This document shows positions 21,901 to 57,925 of a DNA stretch of 57,925 bases, piece after piece. The stretch is taken from positions 1-57,925 of IMG/VR virus record IMGVR_UViG_3300009160_000051; one strand, given 5' to 3'. Positions within the stretch are counted from its first letter, which is position 1, and every line of letters begins with the position of its first letter. The notes beneath the pieces are model-generated. The model made no database searches. It was not told where the DNA came from and saw only the letters and a list, made by a program, of their open reading frames with translations. The stretch comes from a virus. Its lineage: Duplodnaviria > Caudoviricetes. A program made the translations under genes and the position numbers.

Positions 21901-22239
21901 TTACTTACCGTAAAACTTGTTGAGGGGATGACTACGTGATTTTGTTACCATACCACCGCTATTAAAGTCTTCTCTAAGATCTTTGTAGTCTGGTGCTTTA
22001 GTTTCAGCTTCGCCTGCTTTTCTTTTTTCTTTATTCTTTTCTCTACGGATCATTTCTTCATCAGCAGCAAGACGGTCATTGATTGACTTAGAAGCTGTAG
22101 AATTTGCTTCTAGCTCAGCTTTAGATTTCTTAGCCATTTCAACTTTCTTTGCAGCTAGCTCTACCTTACCCTGTTCTTCCTTCGGATACTTTTTAGAAAG
22201 CCTACCTACAAACTCCGCTGCTTTTTTTGATACTGGCAT
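21901..22239 (-). CDS. Lys/Glu-rich protein with an xxxGG tag
   Basis: FNSGGMV near the C-terminus. Confidence 0.6.
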   Translation of the reverse strand: MPVSKKAAEFVGRLSKKYPKEEQGKVELAAKKVEMAKKSKAELEANSTASKSINDRLAADEEMIRREKNKEKRKAGEAETKAPDYKDLREDFNSGGMVTKSRSHPLNKFYGK

Positions 22240-22266
22240 GTCCCTACTCCGTAATTAAAATTAAGA

Positions 22267-22536
22267 TTACCACTTAACCTTGTCAGCCCAGTATGCAGCT
22301 GATAGCTTACCCTTTGAAATATTCTTAGCGTGTCTTGCCTTGAATGACTTTTGTCTAGCTTTCTCTGCAGGTGTCGAAGGATTAGATCCAGCACCTGATA
22401 CACCTTGTTGTCCAAATCGGATAAGCTTCTCTGTACTGCCTTCCTTAGCTAGCACAGCATGTGACTTAGTAGGATGTTGGGGAGTTCTCTTCGGTTTATT
22501 ATAACCAGCAAACTCTTCCTTACCTTTTTTAATCAT
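22267..22536 (-). CDS. small basic protein
   Basis: NKPKRTP.HP.KSH.V...IRFG.QG...SFKARH...SAAYWA...W. Confidence 0.7.
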   Translation of the reverse strand: MIKKGKEEFAGYNKPKRTPQHPTKSHAVLAKEGSTEKLIRFGQQGVSGAGSNPSTPAEKARQKSFKARHAKNISKGKLSAAYWADKVKW

Positions 22537-22805
22537 ACGAACTTGTATCTCTTAGGTTTAAGAACTCTGGATTCACTCCAGCCTTCGGCTCTCATGGCAG
22601 CTTCGACATCTGCTAGTTTGAATTTCATTTGCTTGTGATGCTCCATAGCTGCCTTCACAAAGAATACATCACTATGGGGTACATGTATAGAGTCTAGTCT
22701 ATTGTTCCTAACTGCAGCATAGAAATCTTCCAATACGAAATCATCACGGAGAAGTGTCTTCTTTTTCTTTCGTTTAAGTACGGATAGGTTTACTTGTTTT
22801 TCCAT
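22533..22805 (-). CDS. hypothetical protein, first gene of the late operon
   Basis: 90 aa ORF with HVPHSDVFFV, coupled by an ATGA overlap to the next gene. Confidence 0.6.
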   Translation of the reverse strand: MEKQVNLSVLKRKKKKTLLRDDFVLEDFYAAVRNNRLDSIHVPHSDVFFVKAAMEHHKQMKFKLADVEAAMRAEGWSESRVLKPKRYKFV

Positions 22806-22906
22806 CTTTTGTCAACTGTTATTATTTTTCTGTTGTCTTGCTCTTGCCCTTGCTCGGATACAAGATCCTCGCATTTAGGAAGTACAGATGGTATGTACTT
22901 ATGTGT

Positions 22907-23097
22907 TCACTTTAAGTGAGGCATTTAAATGTCATTCAAAGGTAAATGAATTTTACTTGACAAATGTACATTTAACTGTATACATTTAACTGTTTTTATA
23001 TATCTATGTTATATAGTTATATATGTTTTTATAGTTTAACTATAACACTTTAACTGTATCACTTTAAGTGACTGTCTGTTAGACGTAGTTTAACCGT
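22907..23097. repeat. AT-rich short direct repeats with TTTAA core
   Basis: TCACTTTAAGTGA at 22907 and 23059; ACATTTAACTGT at 22968 and 22982; variants at 22921, 23033, 23047, 23087. Confidence 0.75.
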
Positions 23098-23180
23098 ACT
23101 TTGCTATTCTTGTCAAGCTTTTTCTGAACTATCTTCTCTATCATAACTAAAGTATCTAAAGACTAAAGTTCTATATACGA

Positions 23181-23209
23181 ATTATAGCATAAGTAAATTA
23201 AACTGTCTA
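23181..23209 (-). promoter_or_regulatory. sigma70 promoter facing the late genes
   Basis: Minus strand TAGACA-N17-TATAAT with extended -10 TG. Confidence 0.65.
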
Positions 23210-24166
23210 GAACAAGCTGTAAGCTGCTTTGCACAGTAGATAGTAGGTAGCTGTCACCTTCAGTGAGATCACTTGCTATGAGGCTTCCTATGCCCTCACA
23301 GAAGGTGTTACACACAAACCCTAGCATTGTATGTGAGTACATCATGTGATTACAGTTTACGTGAGGTAGGGCATGTGAGACACTGAAAGTGCATAGCATT
23401 GTTAGTGTGTACTAACCTATATAAATACCTGATCTGTGTAAGAAGCCATATACAACTAACGCACCACCCCCGCATGGCGCACGCCCGCCCCCAGATGTGC
23501 AGGTAATGCGATATGTGACACGCATCATGCAACACAGTGCAAATGCTATGCAAGGTGATGCATAAATCTGTATACAGATCAACGACTTACAGATTATATG
23601 CAACTGATAAAGTATCAGTTAGTGGGGTAATAGTGCCTAAAAAATAGGCAGTTTATGACTCTGTGAAACAGATATCCCCTTCGGTGTATGGTCACTTTTA
23701 ACCCAACACTCAAACTGTTATCACCTTTGGTGTTTCACTCATCCTGTTTTTCACCTTTGGTGTTTCACAATCATGTCGATTATTCCGTATTTCATCGACA
23801 TGTTTCACCTTCGGTGTTTTCACTTTAGCTACTTCACCTTTGGTGTTTTAGTGTCGAATGTTCGGCACAAAAATGTCATCCAAAGGCTCACATGGTTTTA
23901 ATAGACAGTCTTCAAGCGAAGCTTGAAAAAATATATTAAATAAAGAAAAGTGAAAACTGGCATGGAACTTTTACTAAAGTAACTTTTTCCCGATCAAAAA
24001 TTCCTCGTCAAACAATACCTTTAGCCTTTAGGCTAATTTAAGGGGAAGCCCCAGAAATAGTTTATCTTATTTACGAGAATATATTTACCCTTTACTGAAA
24101 GTGAAAGGGGATATAAATATATTCTCTTTTAAGTAAATAAGATAAACTAAATAAGGAAAAACCATC

Positions 24167-24319
24167 ATGGCAAAATCGATTCTCAGCATCAAAACTTCAC
24201 TCGAATCCTTCGGATTTTGGTATACCCTTCAACGATGTGGAGTATCTTTCGATACCCTATGGTTGATCTTTGTTGCTCACCAATCAAATAAATTTGATAG
24301 CAAGAAATACTCGGCTTAA
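24167..24319 (+). CDS. small early protein (50 aa, not in the ORF track)
   Basis: RBS AAGGA, MAKSILSIKTSLESFGFWY...KKYSA. Confidence 0.55.
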   Translation: MAKSILSIKTSLESFGFWYTLQRCGVSFDTLWLIFVAHQSNKFDSKKYSA

Positions 24320-24371
24320 ACTTTAGTTTACTTACAACTTTACTCACAACTATCCTGAAAGGATAAATATC

Positions 24372-25202
24372 ATGGCAAAATCAATCCGCTCCGCTTTACT
24401 GGCTAACGAAGTTAAGAACTTGGGCATCTTCCAAGCCAAAGGCTTAATCCCTGAAACTCCAGTCGTAGCAAACTGGAAAACAGAGCTTAACGCTCTGAAA
24501 CAAGCCGAGGTGAAAACATCAACTGTTAAAGTTGATAGCAAACTGAAACCTACGAAACAGTCGAAGACTGTACCAACCAAGAAAGCTGAAAAGCCTACCA
24601 AGGCAGAATTAGCGAAAGACTCTAAGAGTCGGCATCAATTCAGCGAGATTATGAATCGACAATTCGGTAGTGAGAAGGGTTATACCCTTGGTCAAGCTAT
24701 TGAACATTCAGCTAGTGTTTACACTAGTATCGTCAAACAAAAGCGTGGTCAGCTTGAAAAGCTGAATGAGATCGGTAAGGTACTGCAAGAGCTTCGCTCT
24801 GTTATCGGCAAATCGGATAAGGAATTCGGTCAAGCAGTTAAGGCAACAGCCTTAAAGAATATGTCTAGACAAGATCGTAGCGATGCTATGTGGTTATCCG
24901 AGAATTGGATTGAGGTGAAGGGCAAAATGAAAGAGTTAGATATTAACTCTTGTTCTGCTAGTTACCTTCGTCAGTTACTTCGTAAAGAAGCGAAATCTGC
25001 TGATAGCAAAGCTACTGTTAGCGAAGCTACTGAGTCAGATTCTGATTCTAGCGAAGCTAGTTCTACTGTCGAACCTTCGACACTACAACTCTCAGGGAAT
25101 GATGCTGAAAGCATTGCTAGTGCCGTTATCCATCTAGCTAAAGCTAAGGGCATTTCACTTGCTGAAATAGCTACGCTAATCCTTGCTGAATCTGCCGAAT
25201 AA
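24372..25202 (+). CDS. first large early protein, function unknown
   Basis: 276 aa, RBS AAGGA, helical core with QDRSDAMWLSENW; followed by a terminator. Confidence 0.8.
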   Translation: MAKSIRSALLANEVKNLGIFQAKGLIPETPVVANWKTELNALKQAEVKTSTVKVDSKLKPTKQSKTVPTKKAEKPTKAELAKDSKSRHQFSEIMNRQFGSEKGYTLGQAIEHSASVYTSIVKQKRGQLEKLNEIGKVLQELRSVIGKSDKEFGQAVKATALKNMSRQDRSDAMWLSENWIEVKGKMKELDINSCSASYLRQLLRKEAKSADSKATVSEATESDSDSSEASSTVEPSTLQLSGNDAESIASAVIHLAKAKGISLAEIATLILAESAE

Positions 25203-25236
25203 CCTTCGGTTAACTGTTGTATGTAGTATCGTCATT

Positions 25237-25256
25237 AGCCCCTAACGGGGCTTTTG
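25237..25256 (+). terminator. rho-independent terminator
   Basis: AGCCCC-TAAC-GGGGCT followed by TTT. Confidence 0.7.
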
Positions 25257-25411
25257 GCGTTAGTAGTACCCGTTTTGTGTAATGCAAATGTACTTGCTAT
25301 GCCCTGTGCCTTGTGATGTATATGCTGTATGTATGTGTCACGCCATGATGTTATGTATGTGTATGTATGGAACTGGCACAGGGTTCATGGCACTTAATTC
25401 GGAGATTATTT

Positions 25412-25534
25412 ATGCCAACTTATCAAGATTATGTAGCTTATGCTAAAGCCAAAGGCTTTATTCCTTTCACAGAAAAAACTTTCAATGCTTTTATTAAAGC
25501 GAAGATAAACCCCATCACTTCAACCTCACTTTAA
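25412..25534 (+). CDS. small early protein (40 aa)
   Basis: RBS GGAG; MPTYQDYVAYAKAKGF... Confidence 0.6.
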   Translation: MPTYQDYVAYAKAKGFIPFTEKTFNAFIKAKINPITSTSL

Positions 25535-25547
25535 TCGGAGATTAACC

Positions 25548-25721
25548 ATGACACATGTATTCGTAGTCACCTCGCATGTAGAGGTCGAGAAAAACAATTG
25601 GAGTAGCGAAATAGTCGGAGCTTTCACCCTACGGAAGGATGCGGAAGCACTTGCTAAAGCACTGGGCGAACAAGCCGAGTCCAATGAAACCATTGAGCTT
25701 CAAGAAGTTGCCCTTAACTAA
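25548..25721 (+). CDS. small early protein (57 aa)
   Basis: RBS GGAG; MTHVFVV...EIVGAF. Confidence 0.65.
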   Translation: MTHVFVVTSHVEVEKNNWSSEIVGAFTLRKDAEALAKALGEQAESNETIELQEVALN

Positions 25722-25734
25722 TCGGAGATTAACT

Positions 25735-25968
25735 ATGTTAAATGAAATTGAAATAGCAGATCTCAGCGTAGCTGATAAATCACATGGCAGTCTATGGGAC
25801 AGGGGTAGTGCTGATAGCTACTATGGTAGACCTCGTGATCCCCATTACTATCCACAGGGTACATACAATGGGGATCGTGTCACAGACCTTACCCCAGAGC
25901 AAGTAAGAGTGTACCTCGCAGGGTATGCATGGAATCAGAAGCATGGGGACAAGAAATCTTGGTACTAG
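25735..25968 (+). CDS. small early protein
   Basis: RBS GGAG before ATG 25735; DRGSADSYYGR..DPHY motif. Confidence 0.7.
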   Translation: MLNEIEIADLSVADKSHGSLWDRGSADSYYGRPRDPHYYPQGTYNGDRVTDLTPEQVRVYLAGYAWNQKHGDKKSWY

Positions 25969-25978
25969 TACATAGTAC

Positions 25979-26061
25979 TAAGGGAAAGTCCCTATTTACA
26001 AGCCAATCCCTATGCCTTGATACTGGAAATGTTTTATAGCGGTACTGTCGAATGTTCGTCA
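25979..26061 (+). promoter_or_regulatory. composite early promoter P1
   Basis: TAAGGG-N4-TCCCTA/TTTACA-N18-GATACT, then TGTCGAATGTTCGTCA 21 nt downstream. Confidence 0.75.
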
Positions 26062-26080
26062 CTAACTAAACGGAGTTTAT

Positions 26081-26800
26081 ATGTCATCACAAATCACCCT
26101 GTTATCCACAGTAGCTAACGCTAAGATCGAGAAAACGAATGCCGTTGTCGGTGGCAATCATCTGTATGCAGAAATGTCCCTGATGCCTAACAACACAATC
26201 TGTGCAGGTAGTAAGGCTGCACAGTGTATGACCCCATGCCTGAAGAATGCAGGTCGTGGTGTCTTCTCGAATGTTCAATTGTCCCGTCAAAGGAAGACTG
26301 ATTTTTGGATGTCCAATCCTACTGAATTCAAAGCACAATTAGTGACTGAATTAGAAGCCCTTGTAAAGAAGGCTAGCAAACAGGGTAAAACGGCTCGTGT
26401 AAGGCTTAATTGCTTCTCGGATATATCTTGGGAGCTTCAAGTTTGCAATCGTAATGGCAAGCCATTTAAGGGCATTCCACAGGCTTTCCCTGAAATCGAG
26501 TTCTACGATTACACCAAGCATGCATCACGATTAGGTAAGACACCTGAGAATTACTCACTCACATTCTCATACTCTGGTGTAGATACCTACAAGAATCAGG
26601 TCAAATTGGCACAGACTTCTAGTGCAAATATGGCAGTAGTTTTCCATGGTAAGGAATTGCCAGTCACTTTCATGTCCCGAAGGGTAATTGATGGTGACTT
26701 GCATGATGCTCGTATCGATGACCCGAAGGGTGTGATTGTGGGTCTTCGTGCTAAAGGACCTGCTCGTAAGGATGTATCAGGTTTTGTAGTGAGGGTATAA
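26081..26800 (+). CDS. gp88-like (radical-SAM-like Cys-motif) protein
   Basis: C-x7-C-x3-C, RLN..SDI, FYDYTK, LTFSYSG motifs of the GP88 family. Confidence 0.75.
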   Translation: MSSQITLLSTVANAKIEKTNAVVGGNHLYAEMSLMPNNTICAGSKAAQCMTPCLKNAGRGVFSNVQLSRQRKTDFWMSNPTEFKAQLVTELEALVKKASKQGKTARVRLNCFSDISWELQVCNRNGKPFKGIPQAFPEIEFYDYTKHASRLGKTPENYSLTFSYSGVDTYKNQVKLAQTSSANMAVVFHGKELPVTFMSRRVIDGDLHDARIDDPKGVIVGLRAKGPARKDVSGFVVRV

Positions 26801-26837
26801 GACCCGAATGTTGGTTCACATTTAATCGGAGATTAAT

Positions 26838-27173
26838 ATGATTATCGTTATTCGTACTCAATACATGGAGAATTACGGAGCACATGACTGGGATGGTGAG
26901 GGTGTGTGTCCACAATACTGGAAGTATAAGGGTGGCTCAGAGTACAAGGTTCGGAATATCCCTAGTGATGTTGACACATACCCTAGCATTGTAGGTATGG
27001 TAAGCAAGGATATCTCACGAAGTGATGACTATTGCAGAGAGTATGTACTGGAATGGTTCGTAGAATCAGATGACTATATGTCATGGTTCGAGAAGTCTCA
27101 GCTTGAGCATGATGGATCTATCACCTATGGTGAACCAGAGATTGACTATCGCAGTTTAACTTGCACTATTTAA
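26838..27173 (+). CDS. hypothetical early protein
   Basis: TQY.ENYGAHDWDG...YWK.KGG motif; RBS GGAG. Confidence 0.7.
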   Translation: MIIVIRTQYMENYGAHDWDGEGVCPQYWKYKGGSEYKVRNIPSDVDTYPSIVGMVSKDISRSDDYCREYVLEWFVESDDYMSWFEKSQLEHDGSITYGEPEIDYRSLTCTI

Positions 27174-27183
27174 CGGAGGATAT

Positions 27184-27381
27184 ATGGATATCACTAAAGC
27201 AATCGAGATCATCAAGGAGTACGGCAATGGCATAGGTGAGACAGACATGCTATGCATTCTGAATGCAATGCTAGATGACGAGGACATCTCTAACAGGGAT
27301 CGTGCTGCAAGGAACCTGTTTATGCACGAAGGTCGGAAGATGTTTGAATCTGTGAAAATTAAACTGGAGGTTGGTGTATGA
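27184..27381 (+). CDS. hypothetical early protein
   Basis: RBS GGAGG, coupled operon. Confidence 0.6.
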   Translation: MDITKAIEIIKEYGNGIGETDMLCILNAMLDDEDISNRDRAARNLFMHEGRKMFESVKIKLEVGV

Positions 27382-27572
27382 AAATCACAATCACAATCGA
27401 GCAATACAATGCCATCAGTCAACTGAAACAGTTTGCCCAGTGGTACATCGATGAGCACGAAGGTGCATCAGGTAGCCGTGAATCCATCGAGCAATGGGAA
27501 ACGGACAGGGATGAGGTTGAGAGGGGCATCAAGGCTCTCGATGAAATCGATTCCATGTTGCAGTACTCATGA
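27378..27572 (+). CDS. hypothetical early protein
   Basis: RBS GGAGG, ATGA overlap. Confidence 0.6.
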   Translation: MKITITIEQYNAISQLKQFAQWYIDEHEGASGSRESIEQWETDRDEVERGIKALDEIDSMLQYS

Positions 27573-27991
27573 AGATTACACCAGTAGCACCCGTCTACCC
27601 TGTGTCCAAGTTCAATAGGCACAGGGAACAAGCAGTCTATGCACCTAAACCCAAGGAGAAAATTGTGCAATATATTACACATAATGAGGATGATTCCATC
27701 AACACAAACATGACCTGCCTACGAGGTCACATCACTACTAGCTACGCTAATCTAGTGGATGCATTCGGTGAGCCATTGAAGGAAGGCTTCGATGACTACA
27801 AGTCAGATGCCGAGTGGGTAGTGCAGTTTGAGGATGGTCTTGTGGCTACAATTTATAACTATAAAAATGGTATCAATTACTGTGGCTCAGAGCATGGCAC
27901 ACCTACACATCGGATCCATGATTGGAACATAGGTGGACATGATGTAGCCGTAGTTGCCTACATTATTGATGCACTGAAGGAGTTAGCATGA
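27569..27991 (+). CDS. hypothetical early protein
   Basis: Y..LV..FG.P...K...EW...TIYNYK...W.IGG; alternative GTG start near 27665 after AAGGAG. Confidence 0.65.
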   Translation: MKITPVAPVYPVSKFNRHREQAVYAPKPKEKIVQYITHNEDDSINTNMTCLRGHITTSYANLVDAFGEPLKEGFDDYKSDAEWVVQFEDGLVATIYNYKNGINYCGSEHGTPTHRIHDWNIGGHDVAVVAYIIDALKELA

Positions 27992-29096: not shown

Positions 29097-29179
29097 TAAG
29101 GGTTTGTCCCTATTGACAGCAGTTTAATGTAGCTACGATACTAGCAAGGCTTTATGGTTCTAGTGTCGAATGTTCGACA
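29097..29179 (+). promoter_or_regulatory. composite early promoter P2
   Basis: TAAGGG-N4-TCCCTA/TTGACA-N18-GATACT, then TGTCGAATGTTCGACA 21 nt downstream. Confidence 0.8.
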
Positions 29180-29195
29180 GTACAAGGAGATCGTT

Positions 29196-29618
29196 ATGAA
29201 ATTATGCAAAGTAGAAGTGGAAGTACCAGCAGGTCAGTACATCTTAGGTGACCCATGCTATGCAGTACCTGATAGTGAATGGATGGAGTTGCTAGAGTCT
29301 TGTGATTACTTTGATAATCCTATTGGCAAAATTACAAGGCACGATAAATCTTACTATCGTATCGTGGCATTCAGTACCCGTTGGGGTGATGGTTGCTACG
29401 ATGGTACAGATGGCAACATGTACCCTGTAGATGCAGGCTTGATAGGTCTGGTGCCTGTAGAGCTATTGGGCAGTGATGTCCATAACTTAAGGGGTGACCT
29501 GTCTAAGATTGTCACATTCGATAAGCCGACTAAGTGTAGCACTGATGGTTCAGGCAAGCTACGCTTCGGTCACATCACAATCGACACAGATCCTGCAGAT
29601 GAGGAGGAAGAAGAATGA
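29196..29618 (+). CDS. hypothetical early protein
   Basis: RBS AAGGAG; GDPCY...T..GDG.Y...VDAGLIG motif. Confidence 0.7.
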   Translation: MKLCKVEVEVPAGQYILGDPCYAVPDSEWMELLESCDYFDNPIGKITRHDKSYYRIVAFSTRWGDGCYDGTDGNMYPVDAGLIGLVPVELLGSDVHNLRGDLSKIVTFDKPTKCSTDGSGKLRFGHITIDTDPADEEEEE

Positions 29619-47432: not shown

Positions 47433-47690
47433 ATGAACCGCTATAGAATTGCAGAAGAATACCCAGACGTAAGGCTTATGATGCTAGAGCCTAGTTACTT
47501 TGACAAAGCTATTGTGGGTGTAGTACAGAGAACCAATCAGGTACAAGCCATTTGTTATGATGCAGATAAGTGCATTAAACTATTAGCTAAGTACGAGAAG
47601 ATATCGGAGGATGATGCAGTAGAGTACTTCGAGTACAACACACAGGGTTCATACGTAGGTGAACACACCCCTGTGTTTCTTTATCGATAG
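47433..47690 (+). CDS. hypothetical protein
   Basis: FD.AI.G...YD..K.I...A.EYFEYN..G.YVGE.TP motif. Confidence 0.7.
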   Translation: MNRYRIAEEYPDVRLMMLEPSYFDKAIVGVVQRTNQVQAICYDADKCIKLLAKYEKISEDDAVEYFEYNTQGSYVGEHTPVFLYR

Positions 47691-50600
47691 CGTTGGATGA
47701 TAGCTTCGTACTTGTATACTTGTCCGTAGTCTTTAGTAGCATCCATTGATTTACCATCATGCTCTGCAGCATATAGTTCATTTATAGCTCTACGGGCAAC
47801 GGCAGGTAACTTGTTAAAGCGTAGTTGATTTACACGATCACGATCCGATACAGTCATCTTAGCCTGTGTAATCTCTCGTGAGATACCTAGTGTCTCTTGC
47901 ATGGTAGTGATAGCAGCTAGTCTCTTCTGATCCAGTGTATAACCTTTGTATCTATCACTGTTAATCAAGTCAGTCATGCGTTTCTCTACCAAAGGTACTG
48001 ACTCTTTAATAAAGGCACGATCATATACTTTATCACCTGTGCTACCAAAGATCGCATACGGATCTAAGTTAAGTTTGACAAACTCTTTTTCAACTAGGGG
48101 TTTAGATGGGACAAGTCTCATACCAGTTAGTGTGTTAAAGAATTCACCAGCACGAACAGGTGCCTTGTTAGAGAAGTAAGGTTGGAACTCAGGCAACTCT
48201 TCTTTGAGTTCAGGTAACTTAGCCATCACCCTTTGAACAGCAGCTTGCTGGAATTTATCATCTGATGTAATCACATTAGGATCTCTAGCAATCTGTCCCT
48301 CAGCATCAAACAAATCTAGATACTCAAACACAGGCTTGCCGGGTGTAGTAAACCTACCCATGAAATCACCAAGCAATCTACCTAATGCAACAGATACTTT
48401 GTCTGCATCCTTACCCTCAGAACCCGCAATGTATTGTGGTAACTGGTCTAGCAAATAAGACTGAGTACCAGCAGGCATCTTCATACCTGCAATAGTAGAA
48501 GCTAGTTCTGATAGCTTAGCATCTTCAGGTCTACCTGTCTTTTGCTTAGCAATAAAATCCCCTACAGCTAAGTATGGACCTAGTGGGAATAGTGCTCTTG
48601 TGTCTGTCGTACTTCCATCAGCATTCTTAATGTTGTACCATTCTTCATCTTGATGATCCATACGATACTTGTATGCAGCATAGATAGCAGCAGTACCTAC
48701 AACACCTTTACTGGTCTTCTCTAAGCCTTGGTTTAACAGGGCATACCCACCCTCTTCACCTTTAGCTAACTTAGCTGCACCACTTGCCATATCCACAGCA
48801 CCTGATGCAGTACCCAGTGGGCTATGCCTATACTGGAATGCAATGGCATTAGACATGAATCTAGGGAAGGTTACGATTAAAGAACCACCGGGAAGCTTCT
48901 CAAAGAAACTAACAAAGTCATGTGCCAAGTTCTCTGAGACTGCTTCTAAGCTCTTGTCACCTGCTTTCTGTTGCTTAGGCATGTAGGAGAAGGTAGCCTT
49001 TAAAGTCTCGTCTGTGGCGTTTTTAAGTATGTCTACGGGGATGTCTTTGTTATTGGCTAACAGATCCATCATGTCTATACCCACACGGTTAAGCTGTCTC
49101 TGTACGCTTGATGCAAAGATAGCCCGTCTAAAGAAAGCATCCTGTGCTACGTTAAGTGTATTCACAGTACGTGCTACCTTACTGAGATCACTTGTTGTGC
49201 TCTCTTGAAGTGCACTGAATAGCTGGTTCTGTAAACGTGGGTTATTCTTAAGGATAGCATCTACAGTTTCTGCAGTTAAACCTGCATTAGACATATATCC
49301 AATAGTAGCAAAGGAGTCCTTGACTGTGTCTACTAAACCCTTGGAGATATCACCTTTTTGATATGTTCCTGTAGCCATACCTGTGATAGCTTTACCTGTG
49401 GTATAGATAGCACCATCGATTAAATTAGCTGCAGCATCCATTGTCATAGCACCACTAGTGCCTAACACGTTACGTATAGTAGTGCCAAGACCTGATACTA
49501 CAATAGCCTTAGACTCTCGCTCTAAACGATTGATAGCACGTAAGGCATTACCCATAATAGACGGGGCTTCAATGTCCTTACCATACAATTCATTGACTAG
49601 CTTCTCTGCTTCAGGATCTAGCTGTGCTACCTTCTTGAGAGTACGAGCAAGTGCAGAGTATCCCTGCATCACATTAGCTGCATCAGCTACAGTAGTACGA
49701 GTAGCCTTAGCAAAATCTTCTGGAGTTAAGTTAGCCTTCTTAAGTGCAGCATCGATGACATCATTGTCAATGTTATCCATTGAACTAAATACATTCTTAA
49801 CTGCATCACTTACCTTCTGCCCATTGACAGGTCTAAACTCAGGAGCTAGCATCATGACATACTTAGCTACATCAATAGCCTTACGATTAATGTCAGTACG
49901 GATTTGTGATTGAGTTAAGTCTGTAGGTGCAGATAAGTCATCGAGTATCTTACGACCTTCAAAAATATCAAACTCATTTAATAAATCTTCTTGTGATTTA
50001 TCAAAGGATTCATTTAACTTCTTAGTTGCAGGATCTACAATACCAGTTTTAGATTTCTTACCTGCAAGAATATCTTCTAGTTCTTTTTTAGTAGTAGTAA
50101 TCTTACCCTTAATTGCAGTAGCAGCTTCAGCACCACCACCGAATGCACTCAGTGCAGAGGCAATACCTAACTGTAGGTAGTCTAACTCATCCTTTTGAAC
50201 ACCAGTCTTACGCTTCACATCCTGATCAATTACATTCTGACCAGCACCGATAACTGTTTCAGCACCTGCTGCGGCACCAATGGTCTTTAGTTTAGAGCTA
50301 AGCACATTCTTGATTGCTTGTCTTGCTACTGCATACCTAGCACTAGCACCAATACCAGCACTAAGAATATTAGTAGGTTCACTGACTGCAGATAAAACAC
50401 TTTCTGCAAAAGGTCTAACACCCGGCTGTCCACCTGACTCATAGAAAGATGGAACAGCATCATACAAATTGTGAGCACGAGCAGCTTTAATTACATCCTC
50501 TGGCTTAGCATTGTTTAACCAGTTTAATTCAGGAACAGCATTCAGGGAAGTGTTCCACTCTACCTGTCTCATGGATGTCATGAAACGCTTAGCATAGTCC

Positions 50601-50950
50601 TCGTCAGATTCTTTAGGAAGTTGCTTACCTTCTTCACCGAAACGAGCTTCGGCATAATCACGAATGACTTTGAGATTCTCAGGTTGCTTATACAGGTCTT
50701 CAAACTTAATCTTAGATTCCTTACCTGCAGCACGTTCTTCTGGGGTACCCTTGATGCGTTGAATTTCTACATCAGACTGATACTTGTATTCTGCTGGTGG
50801 TTTAGCTACAGGTAAATCAAACTCAGAAGTAGGAATAGCTTCCCTAGTATTGTCTGTCTGTAAAGGAATAGCAGGTGCATTCTCAAATTCCTTTGGGGCA
50901 CCTTCTATCTGTACTTGTCCTGCTATAGGTAAATCGAATTCACTAGCCAT
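47681..50950 (-). CDS. large internal virion (ejection) protein
   Basis: 1089 aa, largely helical, last gene of the late block, a position typical of podovirus ejectosome proteins. Confidence 0.65.
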   Translation of the reverse strand: MASEFDLPIAGQVQIEGAPKEFENAPAIPLQTDNTREAIPTSEFDLPVAKPPAEYKYQSDVEIQRIKGTPEERAAGKESKIKFEDLYKQPENLKVIRDYAEARFGEEGKQLPKESDEDYAKRFMTSMRQVEWNTSLNAVPELNWLNNAKPEDVIKAARAHNLYDAVPSFYESGGQPGVRPFAESVLSAVSEPTNILSAGIGASARYAVARQAIKNVLSSKLKTIGAAAGAETVIGAGQNVIDQDVKRKTGVQKDELDYLQLGIASALSAFGGGAEAATAIKGKITTTKKELEDILAGKKSKTGIVDPATKKLNESFDKSQEDLLNEFDIFEGRKILDDLSAPTDLTQSQIRTDINRKAIDVAKYVMMLAPEFRPVNGQKVSDAVKNVFSSMDNIDNDVIDAALKKANLTPEDFAKATRTTVADAANVMQGYSALARTLKKVAQLDPEAEKLVNELYGKDIEAPSIMGNALRAINRLERESKAIVVSGLGTTIRNVLGTSGAMTMDAAANLIDGAIYTTGKAITGMATGTYQKGDISKGLVDTVKDSFATIGYMSNAGLTAETVDAILKNNPRLQNQLFSALQESTTSDLSKVARTVNTLNVAQDAFFRRAIFASSVQRQLNRVGIDMMDLLANNKDIPVDILKNATDETLKATFSYMPKQQKAGDKSLEAVSENLAHDFVSFFEKLPGGSLIVTFPRFMSNAIAFQYRHSPLGTASGAVDMASGAAKLAKGEEGGYALLNQGLEKTSKGVVGTAAIYAAYKYRMDHQDEEWYNIKNADGSTTDTRALFPLGPYLAVGDFIAKQKTGRPEDAKLSELASTIAGMKMPAGTQSYLLDQLPQYIAGSEGKDADKVSVALGRLLGDFMGRFTTPGKPVFEYLDLFDAEGQIARDPNVITSDDKFQQAAVQRVMAKLPELKEELPEFQPYFSNKAPVRAGEFFNTLTGMRLVPSKPLVEKEFVKLNLDPYAIFGSTGDKVYDRAFIKESVPLVEKRMTDLINSDRYKGYTLDQKRLAAITTMQETLGISREITQAKMTVSDRDRVNQLRFNKLPAVARRAINELYAAEHDGKSMDATKDYGQVYKYEAIIQRYR

Positions 50951-50968
50951 CTGACTTCCTTGTTGTTA

Positions 50969-52234
50969 TTATTGCCAGCTTGTACCATTCCAAGATTTGA
51001 TACTGCCATCAGCAGATTTATACTTTTGTCCCGGTACCAGCTTAGTGCCATCAATCTTGCCGTCTGCTGTTTTAGGAATAGCAATAGCTTCTTTAGATAC
51101 AGCTGCAGGTTTAGGTGGAGTAGCAGGTGTTTCTTCTTTCTTAATGGTAGGTTCTGTAGCTCCAGACTTCCAAGACTTTACCTTACCATCTTCAATGTTG
51201 GCATATGGTAATAGAGCATCCATTGAATTACGACCACCTATGATCTTGTTATCTTTGTCTAAGATACCTAAAGCAATAGCTTGTGCTTGGATTAGTTTAT
51301 TCTTATGCTCTTGATATCCTTTAACTGCTTCAGCATCACCAGAGATAACGATAGGTTCATTAGTCTGTGGGTCAATTCGTATAACACCCTTAACAACAAA
51401 TGGCTCTAAGCCAACACGTAGTGATGTATTAAACACAGAGTTAATCTGTGCTGCAGTACGAGGCTTACCATCATCCCCTTTTTCTTTATCAAACATGTTT
51501 TCAATGACAGCATTAGCACGTAGCTTAGCTAAAAGATTCTTGCTAGCAGTAGAGTTAATGTCTTCACCATTTGCAATACGATCACGTAACTGTGCTTGAA
51601 CATTTGCAAGGGTATCTGGGTTTTTAAACTGAGACAGATCAGCAGTACCTTCAATCTTAGCACCAGAATACTCTGGCATGTTACCTCTTAGTGCAGCCTT
51701 AGCACGTAACTCTTTTAGGTCTGCCCCAGTAGCTGTTGTAAACTCTTCTTGAGCTTGAGCATATGCAGGTGATTCAAATCCAAATGCACCTCTGACTACC
51801 TTCTGTGGTGCTTCTGCATCTGGCACAGCAACAGATGTAGCTTCTGTTATGTACTTATCAATAGCTTCTCTCTTTAATTCAGGAGTATCTTTAGCTAATC
51901 TAAATACTGTAGAGAAGTCAACTAGTTCTAAGTCTTTCTTTTCTTTTAAACTAGATACAACTTCTTTTGCTATTGCTGGTTTCTGTAGTAGTCCTACAAT
52001 CTGAGTAGGAGTAAAGCTACCACCTTTACTGTTAGTAAAGCCTGACAGCACTTCAGCAGTAGCCTTTAACTCATCTCGCTTAGTCCTAAGCTTTTCATCT
52101 TGCTCTCCTGCTGTCTTTTGTAATGTATCAAAGTCACGCAAAGCAGATTGACGAATCTCTTTATTTCGTTTATCAATGGCAGTAGCTGCACCCTCAGATG
52201 CTCCAGCTATTAATGCTCCAAAATCAAATCCCAT
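50969..52234 (-). CDS. internal virion protein
   Basis: MGFDFGALIAG.S.G N-terminus, helical, in the ejection cluster. Confidence 0.55.
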   Translation of the reverse strand: MGFDFGALIAGASEGAATAIDKRNKEIRQSALRDFDTLQKTAGEQDEKLRTKRDELKATAEVLSGFTNSKGGSFTPTQIVGLLQKPAIAKEVVSSLKEKKDLELVDFSTVFRLAKDTPELKREAIDKYITEATSVAVPDAEAPQKVVRGAFGFESPAYAQAQEEFTTATGADLKELRAKAALRGNMPEYSGAKIEGTADLSQFKNPDTLANVQAQLRDRIANGEDINSTASKNLLAKLRANAVIENMFDKEKGDDGKPRTAAQINSVFNTSLRVGLEPFVVKGVIRIDPQTNEPIVISGDAEAVKGYQEHKNKLIQAQAIALGILDKDNKIIGGRNSMDALLPYANIEDGKVKSWKSGATEPTIKKEETPATPPKPAAVSKEAIAIPKTADGKIDGTKLVPGQKYKSADGSIKSWNGTSWQ

Positions 52235-52235
52235 A

Positions 52236-52739
52236 TTATTCCACCATATCTTTCATCGGTTTAGCCATTAGACCTGTTGGTTTTTTAGGTTGTTCTTGAA
52301 CTGGCATTTCTGCCTTACTATTTTTACTTGCTAACATTTCTTGAACAGCTAGTTTAGCTTGACGTTGGGGGACAATATTCTCTTTGAGAATGTCTGTAAT
52401 GTTTTCTACATACGGAGTATTGTGCTCATCAGCTACAGCCATAATCAATTCTTCAATCACTGGCAGTACAAGAATACCTACGTCAATAGTATGTATGCCT
52501 TGCATAACACTAGTCTTCTGTAAGATACTAGCAATGTTACGAACAGGTAATCCAGACTCAACTAGATTTAATACTTCTTCATGATTCTCAGAAGTACCTA
52601 AAATTCTTTTAGTGTAGAACTCCATAGCATCTTCTATGGTAGTTAAGCTTGGAGGATTTTCCCAAGGTCTATTACCCGGCTCTGTCGTTAAAGACATACC
52701 GGGTATTGGTGCATTTACATACGAAGCATCTGCTGGCAT
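52236..52739 (-). CDS. virion-associated protein
   Basis: APIPGMSLT.EPG..PWE.PP motif, C-terminal GLMAK. Confidence 0.6.
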   Translation of the reverse strand: MPADASYVNAPIPGMSLTTEPGNRPWENPPSLTTIEDAMEFYTKRILGTSENHEEVLNLVESGLPVRNIASILQKTSVMQGIHTIDVGILVLPVIEELIMAVADEHNTPYVENITDILKENIVPQRQAKLAVQEMLASKNSKAEMPVQEQPKKPTGLMAKPMKDMVE

Positions 52740-52957
52740 TATTCTTTACCTCTTTGCTTTTTAGTTTCCATTCTTCTCTGTCTTAGTGCATACACAAACT
52801 CACCCACATTCTCGATAGCATCTCTTTGCTTACCTGTTTCTTTTTCTATCATTCCCTTGGGTGCTAATAGTCCTTTAGCCATATCAGCTTTGTCAGAAGT
52901 ATTGGACTTCTTACTCACGTACTCTTCAATTTTCTTTTTGTATATATCAAGGCTCAT
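52739..52957 (-). CDS. small protein
   Basis: 72 aa with KGLLAP, coupled to the next gene. Confidence 0.55.
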   Translation of the reverse strand: MSLDIYKKKIEEYVSKKSNTSDKADMAKGLLAPKGMIEKETGKQRDAIENVGEFVYALRQRRMETKKQRGKE

Positions 52958-53001
52958 TTTAAATACCTTTTAAATTTAAACTGTTCTGTCGTATTCGTCT
53001 G

Positions 53002-55131
53002 TTATCTGTCATATTCGTCTGTTATTTGATCAGAGGGCAAAGCACCAGAAGGGGTAAAGGTATCTCTCTCAAACAGACCACCAGCCCAGTTAATAATTCC
53101 CTTACCTGCGTTACCAGCAACACTGAAGATGTCACCTAAGAACTTACCACCTGTAGTGCCACTTAAAATGGTAGCAGCTGAAGTGCCAATGGTCTTAGTA
53201 ATCTCAGCATCCTTAGCCATAGTAGCTGCTAGGATTTGAGCATTAGCTGAGATCTCAGAAGTTGCAATCTTATTAACACGATCAGCAGCGGACTCAGCAG
53301 ACTTCCATGAGTATTCAATCTCATCACGGAACTGTTGCCACATGTTATTGTATTCTACCATAGTTACTTCCATTGCCTTGGTAGCATTGAACTCATTAGC
53401 TCTGTTAATAGCTGCAGTGTTAGCAGTAGAAATCTCTCTACGCCACTGAGCATTAGACTGATCAATCACTAAACGATTCTGTGCATTAAAGCTATCACGT
53501 TGATTCTGTACCTCAGCATTGAACTGCGAGACTGCATTTGTCTGCTGTGTATTAAACTGTGACATAGCATTTGTCTGTGTGGAGTTAAACTGTCCCACTT
53601 GTGTAGTCAAGTTAGCAAAGAACTGATCTGTCTGGTTCTGACTGCTAGCATTAAACTGACGAGAAGCATTCTCTGCAGCTGCATCTGTTAGGATAGACTG
53701 TACATTAGACTGTGCCTTGAACATCTCTGTCTGTTGCTCGTTAGCTAAGTTAGTCATGTCCATCTGTAGGAAAGACTGAGCATTAACTACAGCAGACTGT
53801 TGTCTATTGTTTAAGTTAGCAGTCTCTAAGTTAGCTATCTGTGCAGCATTAGCCATAACTAAAGCTTGATTGTTACTTAGATTAGCTAGGTCCATAGACT
53901 GAGCAAGTCTTGCATTCTCTAAAGCAATCTGCTGCTGGGCAGTAAAGTTTACATTAGCAATGTCAGCTACACGAGCAGCATTAGTTACACGAGTCTGAAA
54001 CTCTTGATCAAAGGATTGACCTAAGAATGCAGCACGTTGCTGTGCACTTAATACAGCTACTTGCTGTCTGTTAGATAGATTCTGTAATCCCATCTGCTGG
54101 TATGCTTGAGCATCTGCAGAAGCGATAGGTGTAGCAGCTTCGAGTGTAGCTTGAATGATAGCTTGACCTGCTAGGCTAGAAGCACCTAAACCTCTAGCTG
54201 CCATCTGTGCAGTAGCATTACGTAATGAAGCAGCAGCCCAAGCTGGAGGATTACCTGTTTCAAAGTTAGTCATCAGATTATCAAGCTGACCTTGAACTGT
54301 CATCTCTTTTGTAACTACTCCCTGTGCAGCTTCATTCTTAGCAAGGTTAGCTTCTACAGTAGCCATGTCTACAGCAGGACCAGTAACTAATTCACCAGTC
54401 TGTAGAGTACGACTTGGTGCATTCTGTACTTGTCCTGTGATACCTTGTGCAGCTTGTAGCTGACCTACCTGAGTTGCAGCAGGAGTAACTTGAGCAGCTT
54501 GAACCTGAGCCTGATCTGATACAGTACCCTGTGCAGCTTGAGTAGCAGCAGTTACAGCTTGCACTGTAGGTGCAGTAGATACAGATTGCATTGTAGCTGC
54601 AGGAGTTACAGTGGGTGCAGTAACTGTGGAGACTGTAGGTGCAGTAGCAGCAGTGACTGTGTTTGCCTGTGTAGGGGCTAACTGTGTATCAAGTGTCTGC
54701 CCAGCTTGAACTGCTTGTAATGCAGGTGCTACTTGAGCAACTTGGGGTTGAATAGGAATACCAGTAGTTGCATTGATAGTAGTCTTACCTGCAGGCGTAT
54801 TTGTTGTAGGTGTATTTGTCGGAGCAAAATTATCAACAGGACTAGGCATAGCACCTACAACAGAATCCGCAGGCATCCATTCACCTCTAGTTTCACTCCA
54901 AACAGTTCCCGGAGGAGGTCCATTACCCGGCTCAAATTTACTTACTGCCCCACCATCAGCCATCTTTACCATGCCACCACGAGCCATGAACTTCTCTACG
55001 ATAGTGCCATACTTCTGTGCATCAGAAGGAGTAGATTTAAGATACTCATCAAACATATTCATAGGACCTTCGTAACCCATCCTACGGGCTACTACTTCCT
55101 TTTGTTTTGATGTAAATGATTTATCTGCCAT
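53002..55131 (-). CDS. Ala/Gln/Asn-rich internal virion protein
   Basis: Long QFNA/NQQ coiled-coil repeats; MARGG and MADGG tags near the N-terminus. Confidence 0.65.
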   Translation of the reverse strand: MADKSFTSKQKEVVARRMGYEGPMNMFDEYLKSTPSDAQKYGTIVEKFMARGGMVKMADGGAVSKFEPGNGPPPGTVWSETRGEWMPADSVVGAMPSPVDNFAPTNTPTTNTPAGKTTINATTGIPIQPQVAQVAPALQAVQAGQTLDTQLAPTQANTVTAATAPTVSTVTAPTVTPAATMQSVSTAPTVQAVTAATQAAQGTVSDQAQVQAAQVTPAATQVGQLQAAQGITGQVQNAPSRTLQTGELVTGPAVDMATVEANLAKNEAAQGVVTKEMTVQGQLDNLMTNFETGNPPAWAAASLRNATAQMAARGLGASSLAGQAIIQATLEAATPIASADAQAYQQMGLQNLSNRQQVAVLSAQQRAAFLGQSFDQEFQTRVTNAARVADIANVNFTAQQQIALENARLAQSMDLANLSNNQALVMANAAQIANLETANLNNRQQSAVVNAQSFLQMDMTNLANEQQTEMFKAQSNVQSILTDAAAENASRQFNASSQNQTDQFFANLTTQVGQFNSTQTNAMSQFNTQQTNAVSQFNAEVQNQRDSFNAQNRLVIDQSNAQWRREISTANTAAINRANEFNATKAMEVTMVEYNNMWQQFRDEIEYSWKSAESAADRVNKIATSEISANAQILAATMAKDAEITKTIGTSAATILSGTTGGKFLGDIFSVAGNAGKGIINWAGGLFERDTFTPSGALPSDQITDEYDR

Positions 55132-57628: not shown

Positions 57629-57925
57629 GATATATATGTTCCAGAAGTTGTGAACGTATGATAAGTGTATCCACCAGATGATGTAATAGTCCCGCCTGAT
57701 CCACGAGTAGAACCAGCATAGCGAATAATTACCACACCTGATCCGCCATTTCCAGCTACACGGTTGCCACCGCTTAATGAACAGTTTCCACCACCACCGC
57801 CACCCGTGTTAGCTGTACCAGCACTTCCAACTGCACTATTAGTTCCGCCATTACCACCGCCGCCATTACCACCAAGGGGTGCAGTTGCTGTCGTTGCATC
57901 AGTACCGCCACCGCCACCGCCAGCA
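57625..57925 (-). CDS. glycine-rich tail protein (partial, 5' end outside the window)
   Basis: ...NTGGGGGG...GNGGSGVVIIRY...YTYHTFTTSGTY then stop; frame open to the window edge. Confidence 0.75.
   Translation of the reverse strand, partial: AGGGGGGTDATTATAPLGGNGGGGNGGTNSAVGSAGTANTGGGGGGNCSLSGGNRVAGNGGSGVVIIRYAGSTRGSGGTITSSGGYTYHTFTTSGTYIS

Follow-up and report, generated by a model that had tools for sequence, protein, structure and literature searches.

The first early gene of a freshwater HMO-2011-type phage, together with the region upstream of it, is covered by a carpet of short DNA hairpins. We found this carpet in a stretch of 57,925 nucleotides, hereafter called the window, where it forms a conserved zone of ~1.7 kb with a weaker tail of ~2.5 kb at the start of the rightward early arm. 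Here, both DNA strands are laid out such that dozens of short hairpins can form once the duplex opens, and these hairpins persist by paired substitutions in their two arms, even where the overlapped gene pays with amino-acid changes. With a probability of about 0.75, we regard the carpet as a property of the DNA itself that is linked to a single-stranded or supercoil-extruded state.

Hairpin content of the carpet

An earlier note, made from the sequence alone, had described more than 30 mini-hairpins, dominated by GAA/TTC triloops, between positions 23602 and 25252. The carpet is real and stronger than was claimed. Counting perfect Watson-Crick stems of at least 4 bp with loops of 3–5 nt, some centres of which overlap as alternative pairings, we obtained 60 hairpins. 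All 14 GAA/TTC hairpins that had been listed were recovered as exact strings at their positions, as were the TAAA/TTTA loops at 23971, 24021, 24317, 24712 and 25135 and the other stems at 23602, 23634, 24242, 24481, 24518, 24618, 24675 and 24931; one further stem, listed at 24840, lies at 24838. The carpet and the elements in and around it are the following.

23460..23510, + strand: C-rich block, read by eye, unusual in this 39% G+C region and conserved in relatives
23602..25252, unstranded: core hairpin carpet, 60 perfect centres with stems of 4–8 bp and loops of 3–5 nt, 14 with GAA/TTC triloops
23675..23851, + strand: iteron-like direct repeats TCACC-TTY-GGTG(TTTCAC), four exact copies and one with one mismatch
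23925..24160, + strand: A+T-rich promoter region, with a putative sigma-70-like early promoter near 23948–23985, read by eye from the alignment
24058–24149: imperfect 92-nt palindrome within the A+T-rich promoter region
24167..24319, + strand: 50-aa ORF within a ~205-bp insertion, in which the ribosome-binding site and the beginning of the 276-aa gene are duplicated
24372..25202, + strand: first sizeable early gene (276 aa), encoding a conserved protein, with hairpins written through the coding sequence
25067..25082, unstranded: 16-bp palindrome TGTCGAA-NN-TTCGNCA, one of four copies (others at 23852, 26046 and 29164)
25237..25258, + strand: terminator-like hairpin AGCCCC-TAAC-GGGGCT followed by a T-run, which closes the first transcription unit and is conserved in relatives
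25253..27991, + strand: weaker tail, in which the early genes that follow still show an excess of hairpins (z of about 2–3.6 per gene)
25531, 25719, 26067 and 26822: ribosome-binding-site hairpins with GGA in the loop, inside the weaker tail

Hairpin density reaches 36.3/kb in 23602–25252 compared to 15.3/kb window-wide (887 hairpins in the whole window), and 42.5% of the bases of the carpet lie inside perfect hairpins, compared to 16.5% elsewhere. When a 1651-nt frame was slid along the record at 100-nt steps, this segment scored highest, with z values of 4.4, 4.7 and 5.3 for stems of at least 4, 5 and 6 bp, respectively. Moreover, 14 of the 29 GAA/TTC triloop hairpins of the window fall within the carpet, which represents 2.85% of the sequence.

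The earlier note had proposed that a sliding-window count be set against codon-preserving shuffles of 24372..25202, and the excess holds under this control. The ORF contains 33 hairpins versus 10.7 ± 3.0 in synonymous-codon permutations (0 of 2000 reach 33), including 10 stems of at least 6 bp versus 1.1 and eight GAA/TTC loops versus 0.5; with a z of 8.1 against synonymous permutation, the 276-aa gene is an extreme outlier among the genes of the window. The count for the whole carpet compares with 21.7 ± 4.8 in dinucleotide shuffles (0 of 1000 reach 60), and that for its non-coding part, 23602–24371, is 23 versus 12.2 (6 of 1000).

The excess is limited to spacers of 2–7 nt (5.2-fold at a spacer of 3, 0.74-fold at 0 and ~1-fold at 10 or more), and the enrichment grows with stem length, the longest stem being 8 bp. 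Closing pairs of the 5'-C..G-3' type are found in 29 of the 60 carpet hairpins and in 166 of 750 elsewhere (p 2.5e-5), and GNA/TNC triloops in 16 of 33 versus 46 of 279 (p 8e-5). C-GAA-G and its reverse complement C-TTC-G both occur, five times each, thus making up 10 of the 33 carpet triloop hairpins; over the zones of eight relatives, GNA or TNC loops account for 139 of 275 triloops. Both carpet strands fold as single-stranded DNA beyond their shuffles (z −3.9 and −4.3, compared to −1.2 for the neighbouring gene). Because of the spacer-length enrichment, the closing-pair and loop bias and this single-strand folding, we conclude that the carpet is made of hairpins and not of plain palindromes. 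The build of these hairpins is that of a DNA mini-hairpin known for its extra stability: a stem of 4–8 bp closed by a 5'-C..G-3' pair, and a G-N-A triloop. Hairpins of the GCGAAGC type are reported to be resistant to nucleases and to single-strand-binding protein (SSB), and to be found at the G4 origin and in ssiA (as CCGAAGG), bound by the RepB' primase. Physiological supercoiling is reported to suffice in phage N4 for the extrusion of small hairpins that have a G..A loop closed by a C:G pair.

The density had also been said to drop after a terminator near 25252. This terminator is present (see above), but the drop is only partial, since 25253–26080, although it contains no GAA/TTC loop, still holds 19 hairpins versus 9.7 expected (7 of 1000), an excess to which ribosome-binding-site hairpins contribute.

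Elements of another kind lie inside the carpet. Iteron-like repeat matches with at most one mismatch number eight window-wide, versus 0.39 expected, and cluster at 23675–23851; among relatives their stem is fixed and their loop variable (TTT/TTC/GAA), and they are probably sequence-specific protein sites. The TGTCGAA-NN-TTCGNCA palindrome gives eight strand-matches versus 0.02 expected and is probably a sequence-specific operator. As a cause of the whole carpet, sequence-specific protein sites were rejected, the stems being unrelated. The putative early promoter reads in relatives as TTGACA, a spacer of ~17 nt, then TACTAT/TATAGT, and consensus promoter and terminator scans gave counts at shuffle level. 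The ~205-bp insertion is found in the window and in relative L006 and is absent from L004, L005, L007 and L009; a contig of run X5 skips 24177–24393.

Covariation and conservation among relatives

The carpet is kept in all eight homologous genes examined, with compensatory changes; the earlier note had suggested looking for synonymous changes of this kind in relatives. In the homologue alignment, 84.8% of stem cells are paired, compared to 28–42% when the partner is slid, and 23 pairs changed on both sides, compared to 6–9 (0 of 500 shuffles reach 23). Even between closely related sequences, double changes that restore pairing are more frequent than independence predicts (6 versus 0.7 for L014/L015 and 2 versus 0.2 for L004/L008). 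Among the non-paired cells of the ORF (146 column pairs, nine genes), G:T was observed 50 times and A:C 51 times, and upstream of the ORF 15 and 13 times, respectively. G:T is thus no commoner than A:C, and the constraint therefore acts on the DNA and not on the mRNA. The earlier suggestion of selection or bias on DNA structure, as opposed to a protein-binding sequence or an mRNA fold, is supported by this equality and by the covarying stems at kept positions. The match of loop and closing pair to C-GNA-G, the restriction to 2–7-nt spacers and the lack of any flanking consensus when the 14 GAA/TTC hairpins are aligned on the loop (at most 0.7 bit outside loop and closing pair) point the same way.

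Many hairpins hold their position and loop class among genes that share only 56–85% amino-acid identity; C-GAA-G is found in nine of nine genes at alignment column 706, and a hairpin in nine of nine at columns 608, 760 and 825. Lineage-specific hairpins turn over among relatives. In some cases a loop is exactly inverted, as TTTA/TAAA when the close relatives L004 and L005 are compared, and TTC/GAA at the first iteron-like repeat. Substitution is slower at stem sites than on average over the gene (0.119 versus 0.189, window versus L004), and 30 of 43 third-codon positions vary in stems versus 52 of 68 elsewhere, a difference that is not significant. The cultured phages HMO-2011 and CRP-1 carry the carpet at the same genomic place; it is absent from the pelagiphage HTVC033P, which is of the same phage type. 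Among named phages, neither the region nor the 276-aa protein has a close DNA or protein match.

The family of the 276-aa protein gave no Pfam, PHROG or PDB sequence match, and its structure model was too poor for a fold search (pLDDT 48.8). The protein atlas had pointed to DUF3102 (score 0.91, 29% of cluster members), but Pfam scans of eight homologues did not bear this out. CRP-1 gp01 is a possible distant homologue, as judged from profile comparison (hhalign probability 52%, E 1.4e-4), and the comparison with HMO-2011 gp74 was not significant.

A putative replication origin beside the carpet

Our best explanation, put forward tentatively, is an origin or priming role, in which the carpet provides folded single strands beside an iteron-type replication origin. 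This origin would consist of the iteron-like repeats and the A+T-rich stretch, which the carpet flanks. Its unwinding, or strong negative supercoiling of the region, would allow the strands to fold locally; such folding may slow re-annealing and leave structures resistant to SSB and nucleases, at which the phage DnaB-like helicase and DnaG-like primase could start synthesis, in the manner known from the single-strand initiation signals of plasmid RSF1010 and phage G4. The perfect carpet is probably kept and extended in part by template switching, in which hairpins template the copying of this often single-stranded DNA.

Several observations are consistent with this proposal. As in iteron-type origins, a cluster of direct repeats (five copies in 23675–23851) lies beside an A+T-rich stretch (23925–24160). 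The initiation hairpins of RSF1010 adjoin iterons and an A+T-rich stretch. The cumulative GC-skew minimum falls at 23–24 kb, which counts for an origin and is confounded with the switch of transcription direction. The phage encodes a DnaB-like helicase, and in HMO-2011 and CRP-1 the syntenic position carries a gene annotated as primase. The carpet also offers stable GNA/GNNA mini-loop hairpins in single-stranded DNA, the feature of ssiA/ssiB of RSF1010 and of the G4 complementary-strand origin, where such hairpins are described as excluding SSB and marking primase entry. In those systems an origin has one or two defined hairpins, whereas the carpet extends over 1.7 kb; its link to a primase is hypothetical.

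Other observations speak against an origin. The carpet runs only rightward from the repeats, the leftward arm being at background (per-gene z −1.7 to 2.3). No initiator protein family was found, the 276-aa protein having no family match, and DnaA boxes with at most one mismatch number 14 versus 17.8 expected, with none in 23000–24400. It should be noted that described origin and priming signals, with their one or two hairpins, are far fewer and smaller than the carpet, that stem third-codon positions are no more conserved than others and that HTVC033P is without the zone.

Alternative readings of the carpet

We consider it unlikely that the carpet serves the entry phase as first-injected DNA, which was the idea of the earlier note. 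On this reading the genome would be linear and N4-like with the carpet as its leading end, and the hairpins would extrude under gyrase supercoiling, or in DNA unwound soon after ejection, and would help to start transcription, to hold the DNA or to protect it; nuclease armour, a decoy or an entry ratchet, which the note had named as examples, are speculative. The gene layout mirrors that of N4, in that early and replication genes point rightward and structural ones leftward; at its end the leftward arm encodes, in this order, proteins of 1089, 421, 167 and 709 aa, compared to gp50, gp51 (644 aa), gp52 (150 aa) and gp53 in N4, and the portal is distantly similar to that of N4 (26% over 213 aa, E 6e-11), whereas terminase and capsid proteins have no BLAST-level match to it. 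The excess lies on one side only and declines along the early arm. In N4, the same scan recovered early-promoter hairpins of the same build (GTTGC-TTC-GCAAC at 90 and AAGAAGC-TCC-GCTTCTT at 557), and the first 5 kb show a mild excess of stems of at least 5 bp (7–11/kb versus about 5; gp15 z 5.4). Against an entering end, contigs cross 22000–27000 unbroken, including one of 57,289 bases from run X1, the likely source sample, and the window ends, both within a Gly-rich coding repeat, show no terminal repeat; this evidence on genome ends comes from assembled contigs only, in which pile-ups of starts and ends cannot show. Moreover, by our own arithmetic, a stretch of 1.65 kb cannot hold nearly as many supercoils as 60 hairpins would take up.

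The hairpin-promoter platform that the earlier note had offered is not supported. Carpet hairpins share with the N4 early promoters, as these are described, the 5–7 bp stem, the 3-nt loop with a 5' G and a 3' A, the C:G closing pair (C-GAA-G or C-TTC-G in 10 of 33 triloops) and the setting in a podovirus early arm of the same layout. However, N4 is described as having three such hairpins, ahead of genes, with a conserved −17 to +1 sequence, read by an injected polymerase of 3500 aa, whereas the carpet has dozens of hairpins on both strands, with unrelated stems and flanks, most of them inside a coding gene (33 in one ORF) and not ahead of early genes. No conserved −17 to +1 sequence emerged from the 14 aligned hairpins, and putative sigma-70-like early promoters are visible in relatives. 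No virion RNA polymerase was found: PF00940 had no match, though the control genomes were silent too, and the 1089-aa protein at the gp50 position gave no Pfam, PHROG or PDB sequence match, its all-helical model (pLDDT 61, a modest confidence) having no PDB fold match at E ≤ 0.001.

Structured DNA is known from the first-entering part of other genetic elements. The injection-stop (iss) region of the T5 first-step-transfer DNA is described as conserved and crowded with repeats, inverted repeats and palindromes, which favours an entry function. In contrast to the carpet, which is mostly coding and without DnaA-box enrichment, it is described as untranslated, placed in the terminal repeat and carrying an ordered array of DnaA boxes. 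Conjugative plasmids carry in their leading region Frpo-type promoters that act while single-stranded, long imperfect hairpins that rebuild a −35/−10 promoter, whereas the carpet consists of mini-hairpins of 11–21 nt without promoter boxes.

The carpet might also be a mutational by-product without function of its own, which we find doubtful. In a region that is often single-stranded, template switching across transient hairpins would perfect and lengthen near-palindromes, and selection would merely remove what the protein cannot bear. The exact loop inversions between close relatives, the turnover of lineage-specific hairpins and the lack of extra conservation at synonymous sites in stems would all follow, as would the climb of enrichment with stem length, expected from arm extension, and the joint change of both arms far above independent mutation even at 8–11% divergence. 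A by-product accounts less well for the hairpins that keep position and loop class across diverged genes (column 706 among them), for the slower change of stem sites and for stems that never exceed 8 bp. Hairpins are not in excess in the capsid gene, which is highly expressed (10 versus 13.9), and a local cause of single-strandedness would still be required.

An anti-defence role appears very unlikely. Self-folding leading or early DNA might make poor CRISPR spacers or nuclease substrates, or a decoy for hairpin-sensing systems. The evidence for this is indirect: mini-hairpins are reported to resist nucleases and SSB, and the Lamassu DdmABC system to sense hairpin-forming phage palindromes, which shows that such sequences count in defence but would turn palindromes into a liability and not a shield.

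Highly improbable, finally, is a function at the RNA level, where hairpins folded in the early mRNA would affect its stability, its escape from Rho and RNases, or translation. The core excess does coincide with the first transcription unit and weakens past its terminator, the phage uses RNA hairpins at downstream ribosome-binding sites, and two 151-nt metatranscriptome contigs map to 25022–25335, which is weak support, too little to call transcription and possibly DNA carry-over. Against it stand the lack of wobble tolerance in and upstream of the ORF, the enrichment of both the loop motif and its complement, a loop and closing pair that fit DNA and not RNA optima, and covarying hairpins upstream of the putative early promoter; Rfam gave no match (best E-value 0.81).

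Meaning for this phage group

The earlier note knew of no description of such a carpet in this phage group; in agreement, no literature on HMO-2011 with hairpins was found, and the main comparative paper does not contain 'RNA polymerase', 'promoter' or 'secondary structure'. At somewhat less than even odds, we would see here a previously unrecognised genome segment, in which a selected array of dozens of DNA mini-hairpins, on both strands, is superimposed on an early coding gene and the leader of that gene and would work as a single-stranded or supercoil-extruded platform for the start of replication or the first minutes of infection, in a widespread aquatic phage group that includes the abundant marine phages HMO-2011 and CRP-1.

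Stable DNA mini-hairpins are known as isolated landmarks, for example in priming signals or as the promoters of N4, whereas here dozens occupy 1.7 kb over a conserved coding gene. Their arms co-evolve even at the cost of amino-acid replacements, which makes this a clear natural case of DNA secondary structure set against the genetic code. Were the carpet a mutational by-product, it would document template switching with unusual clarity, and at a defined locus. If it marks an origin or an entering end, it would give a first handle on how the cycle starts in a phage group without a known RNA polymerase of its own, and would also be relevant to defence systems that sense hairpin-forming phage DNA. 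As the carpet occurs in the cultured and globally abundant phages HMO-2011 and CRP-1, these readings can be tested at the bench.

Layout of the record and hairpin excess

The record, an entire viral record of 57,925 bases (99% by completeness estimate), encodes a DNA polymerase 60-62% identical to its counterparts in Puniceispirillum phage HMO-2011 and Roseobacter phage CRP-1. Because of this identity, and because near-identical DNA is found in freshwater metagenomes, the window is, judged by sequence, an HMO-2011-type podovirus from freshwater. Its leftward arm runs from ~23.4 kb through small genes and then terminase, portal, capsid and tail genes, ending with genes for 709, 167, 421 and 1089 aa, and its rightward arm, from ~24.2 kb, carries early genes, integrase, helicase, polymerase and ribonucleotide reductase. 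The carpet of mini-hairpins lies at the beginning of the rightward arm, and assembled contigs run across it. The record's start and end (1-20 and 57700-57925; minus strand) both fall within a Gly-rich, GGT/GGC-repetitive coding stretch, owing to which two assemblies break there. No terminal repeat was found at the window ends, which are not evidence for a physical genome end.

We counted as a hairpin any perfect stem of at least 4 pairs with a loop of 3-5 nt. The stretch 23602-25252 holds 60 hairpin centres (36/kb vs 15/kb window-wide), the top density among same-size windows of the record, together with 14 of the record's 29 GAA/TTC triloop hairpins; every hairpin listed in the earlier note was found in place. 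Dinucleotide shuffles of the region gave 21.7±4.8 hairpins, and none of 1000 reached 60. When synonymous codons were permuted within the ORF of the 276-aa protein (24372-25202), the 33 hairpins observed compared with 10.7±3.0 expected (0/2000), those with stems of at least 6 pairs with 1.1 (10 observed) and those with GAA/TTC loops with 0.5 (8 observed), confirming the excess density and loop bias against both codon-preserving shuffles and the rest of the record. Moreover, the same permutation applied to all ORFs of at least 80 aa showed this gene to be the extreme outlier (z 8.1), the following early genes being mildly raised (z about 2-3.6) and the leftward genes all at background (z -1.7 to 2.3).

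Elements in and around the zone
23460-23510: conserved C-rich block, left of the ORF
Left of the ORF: A+T-rich stretch in which relatives show a sigma-70-like promoter
Left of the ORF: imperfect 92-nt palindrome
23675-23851: five iteron-like repeats, TCACC-TTY-GGTG (8 window matches vs 0.39 expected)
23852-23867, 25067-25082, 26046-26061, 29164-29179: four copies, in the early arm, of the 16-bp palindrome TGTCGAA-NN-TTCGNCA (8 strand-matches vs 0.02 expected)
24372-25202, plus strand: ORF of the 276-aa protein
25237-25258: terminator-like hairpin
25531, 25719, 26822: start hairpins with GGA loop, TTAATC-GGA-GATTAA
26067: start hairpin with GGA loop, TAAAC-GGA-GTTTA

Of the four palindrome copies, the first precedes the early promoter region, the second falls within the 276-aa gene towards its 3' end, the third precedes the neighbouring GP88 gene and the fourth lies where ORF 29154-29618 begins; the motif is probably the operator of some regulator. 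Since repeats and putative operator palindromes sit among the mini-hairpins, the carpet is mixed, with a few sequence-specific sites, one terminator and a bulk of mini-hairpins of unrelated sequence. The fall in density proposed to follow the terminator is partial: GAA/TTC loops are gone in 25253-26080, but 19 hairpins remain there vs 9.7 expected. A number of them belong to ribosome-binding sites and have GGA as their loop, and part of the excess arises because an RNA-level translation-start cassette recurs there. In this repeated cassette, a hairpin with a stem of 5-6 bp stands directly before the ATG and carries the Shine-Dalgarno GGAG in its loop.

Two further observations concern the surroundings. 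An insertion of ~205 bp (24167-24371), which copies the ribosome-binding site and first codons of the 276-aa gene to give a 50-aa ORF, is present in the window and one relative (L006) and missing from four others (L004, L005, L007 and L009); a contig of sequencing run X5 skips 24177-24393. On the leftward side, a second non-coding stretch (22900-23130) contains recurring words similar to TTTAACTGT and, close to sigma-70-like boxes, two hairpins of the form ACTTTAAGTGA; this stretch may control the leftward arm.

Structure and covariation of the hairpins

For stems of at least 5 pairs, enrichment depended on the spacer between the arms, at 0.74x, 1.4x, 4.4x, 5.2x, 3.8x and 4.3x for spacers of 0, 1, 2, 3, 4 and 5 nt, and ~1x from 10 nt upward, which is the signature of single-strand stem-loops. 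Plain palindromes or sites for dimeric proteins do not have such a profile. A 5'-C..G-3' closing pair occurs in 29/60 carpet hairpins vs 166/750 elsewhere (p 2.5e-5), and G-N-A loops or their complement in 16/33 carpet triloops vs 46/279 elsewhere (p 8e-5); the same combination characterizes the extra-stable DNA mini-hairpin of the literature. When the 14 GAA/TTC hairpins are aligned by their loops, they have nothing in common outside loop and closing pair. Taken as single-stranded DNA, the ORF folds better than its shuffles on either strand (z -3.9 and -4.3), unlike the gene beside it (z -1.2).

Homologues of the 276-aa protein were found in six IMG/VR loci at 74-85% identity and in three more at 56-65%. 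With L009, a partial near-copy of L004, omitted, all nine genes analysed (the window and eight homologues) carry 33-48 hairpins/kb. Many hairpins keep their alignment position while their stems differ among relatives. For example, GACTC-TAA-GAGTC, GATAC-GAA-GTATC and GTCATC-GAA-GATGAC occupy one position, the protein changing from S-K-S to T-K-Y to S-K-M, and elsewhere a constant GAA loop is carried by the stems CTAGC, CTACC, TTAGC or TAAC. We scored 25 non-overlapping window hairpins (131 pairs) over nine sequences, the structure being drawn from one aligned sequence. Cells were paired in 84.8% of cases vs 28-42% with the partner slid, and 23 pairs had changed on both sides vs 6-9 with the partner slid, a number matched by 0/500 shuffles. 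The 17 non-coding hairpins behave alike (14/81 pairs changed on both sides among four relatives). Compensatory changes, of which the earlier note had suggested seeking synonymous ones in relatives, are present, and double restoring changes exceed the independent-mutation expectation even between close sequences (6 vs 0.7 at 11% divergence; 2 vs 0.2 at 7.6%).

An mRNA structure would tolerate G-U and not A-C. Among non-Watson-Crick aligned pairs, the ORF has 50 G:T and 51 A:C, and the part upstream has 15 and 13, in related rows whose effective sample is smaller. Both loop orientations are enriched (C-GAA-G and C-TTC-G, five each), and the 275 triloops in the zones of eight relatives include 82 GNA and 57 TNC. 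Exact loop inversions occur as well (TTTA/TAAA between L004 and L005; TTC/GAA in the first repeat among relatives), a known outcome of hairpin formation in DNA. An Rfam search of the region gave no match. Because G:T is no commoner than A:C, both orientations are enriched and Rfam is silent, the comparison indicates that the constraint acts at the DNA level; this agrees with the earlier proposal of selection on DNA structure rather than on a protein-binding sequence or mRNA fold, as do the unrelated stems.

Occurrence in other phages

HMO-2011 and CRP-1 have a matching dense zone where their rightward arm begins, with 30-37 hairpins per kb-bin vs about 14. Their first sizeable early genes are likewise rich in hairpins: HMO-2011 gp74 has 25 vs 9.2 (stems of at least 5 pairs, 17 vs 2.2), and CRP-1 gp01, by its sequence possibly a remote relative of the 276-aa protein, has 22 vs 8.5. 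The more distant pelagiphage HTVC033P (polymerase 41% identical), which belongs to this phage type too, is without the zone. Its annotation lists no integrase; the window, HMO-2011 and CRP-1 each have one.

We also scanned the 74 of 80 GP88-homologue loci that reach 6 kb (six shorter ones were left out). Ten contained a 1-kb window with at least 17 stems of at least 5 pairs, seven from the window's own clade and three from distant phages, in which the hairpin-dense kilobase lies upstream of the GP88 gene.

Hairpin-dense zones in three distant phages
L032, 2600-4400: 33% G+C
L058, 4500-6300: 61% G+C
L082, 6000-7800: 30% G+C

Of these, L032 was inspected for ORFs. Its zone lies between divergent arms and favours TTT loops; the early-gene strand is free of long ORFs there, and three minus-strand ORFs of 63-110 aa overlap the zone. 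Phage N4 shows a mild excess only, in its first 5 kb. Its gp15 (L094 4603-5412), an RNA polymerase II subunit, has 10 stems of at least 5 pairs vs 2.6 under synonymous permutation (z 5.4).

Possible roles of the carpet

The zone consists of DNA-level hairpins on both strands, kept by coupled changes of the two sides of the stem, where the early arm begins beside iteron-like repeats. The reading that we favour is an origin-flanking role (probability about 0.35). The zone would act when the duplex opens: locally folded strands would remain apart, their structures would withstand single-strand-binding protein and nucleases, and the phage helicase and primase would begin from them, by analogy with the G4 origin and RSF1010 ssiA. 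Against this role count the large extent of the zone, its position on one side only, the failure to identify an initiator and the lack of such a zone in HTVC033P.

A role in the entry phase, with the carpet as the first-injected DNA proposed in the earlier note, is unlikely. The gene layout mirrors that of N4, including the last four leftward genes (47681-55131, minus strand), which correspond in order and rough size to N4 gp53-gp52-gp51-gp50; beyond layout, BLAST-level similarity is limited to portal and polymerase. The 1089-aa protein sits at the position of the N4 virion polymerase. It has no sequence match and no known family, although hundreds of metagenome relatives exist, and its all-helical model (pLDDT 61, moderate confidence) has no structural match at E<=0.001; it is likely to be an ejection protein. 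No virion RNA polymerase candidate was found in the window. The idea of a hairpin-promoter platform is not supported, as neither such a polymerase nor a common promoter sequence among the 14 aligned hairpins was found. Unlike the T5 injection-stop region, which has DnaA boxes, the window shows no enrichment of such boxes.

That the hairpins are a by-product of template switching is equally unlikely as the main account, yet this process may well contribute whatever the main function. Explanations that we have not thought of take a small share, anti-defence is very unlikely, and an RNA role is more improbable still.

As the earlier note had supposed, our literature search brought up no account in this phage group: no paper was found joining HMO-2011-type phages with DNA hairpins, including 'palindrom' papers by title or abstract opening, and the main text of the principal comparative paper on the group nowhere uses the terms 'RNA polymerase', 'promoter' or 'secondary structure'. 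The single mini-hairpin is an element of a known kind. We found no description of a dense carpet of them written through a conserved gene, and the chance that this is more than a variation on that known kind is fair.
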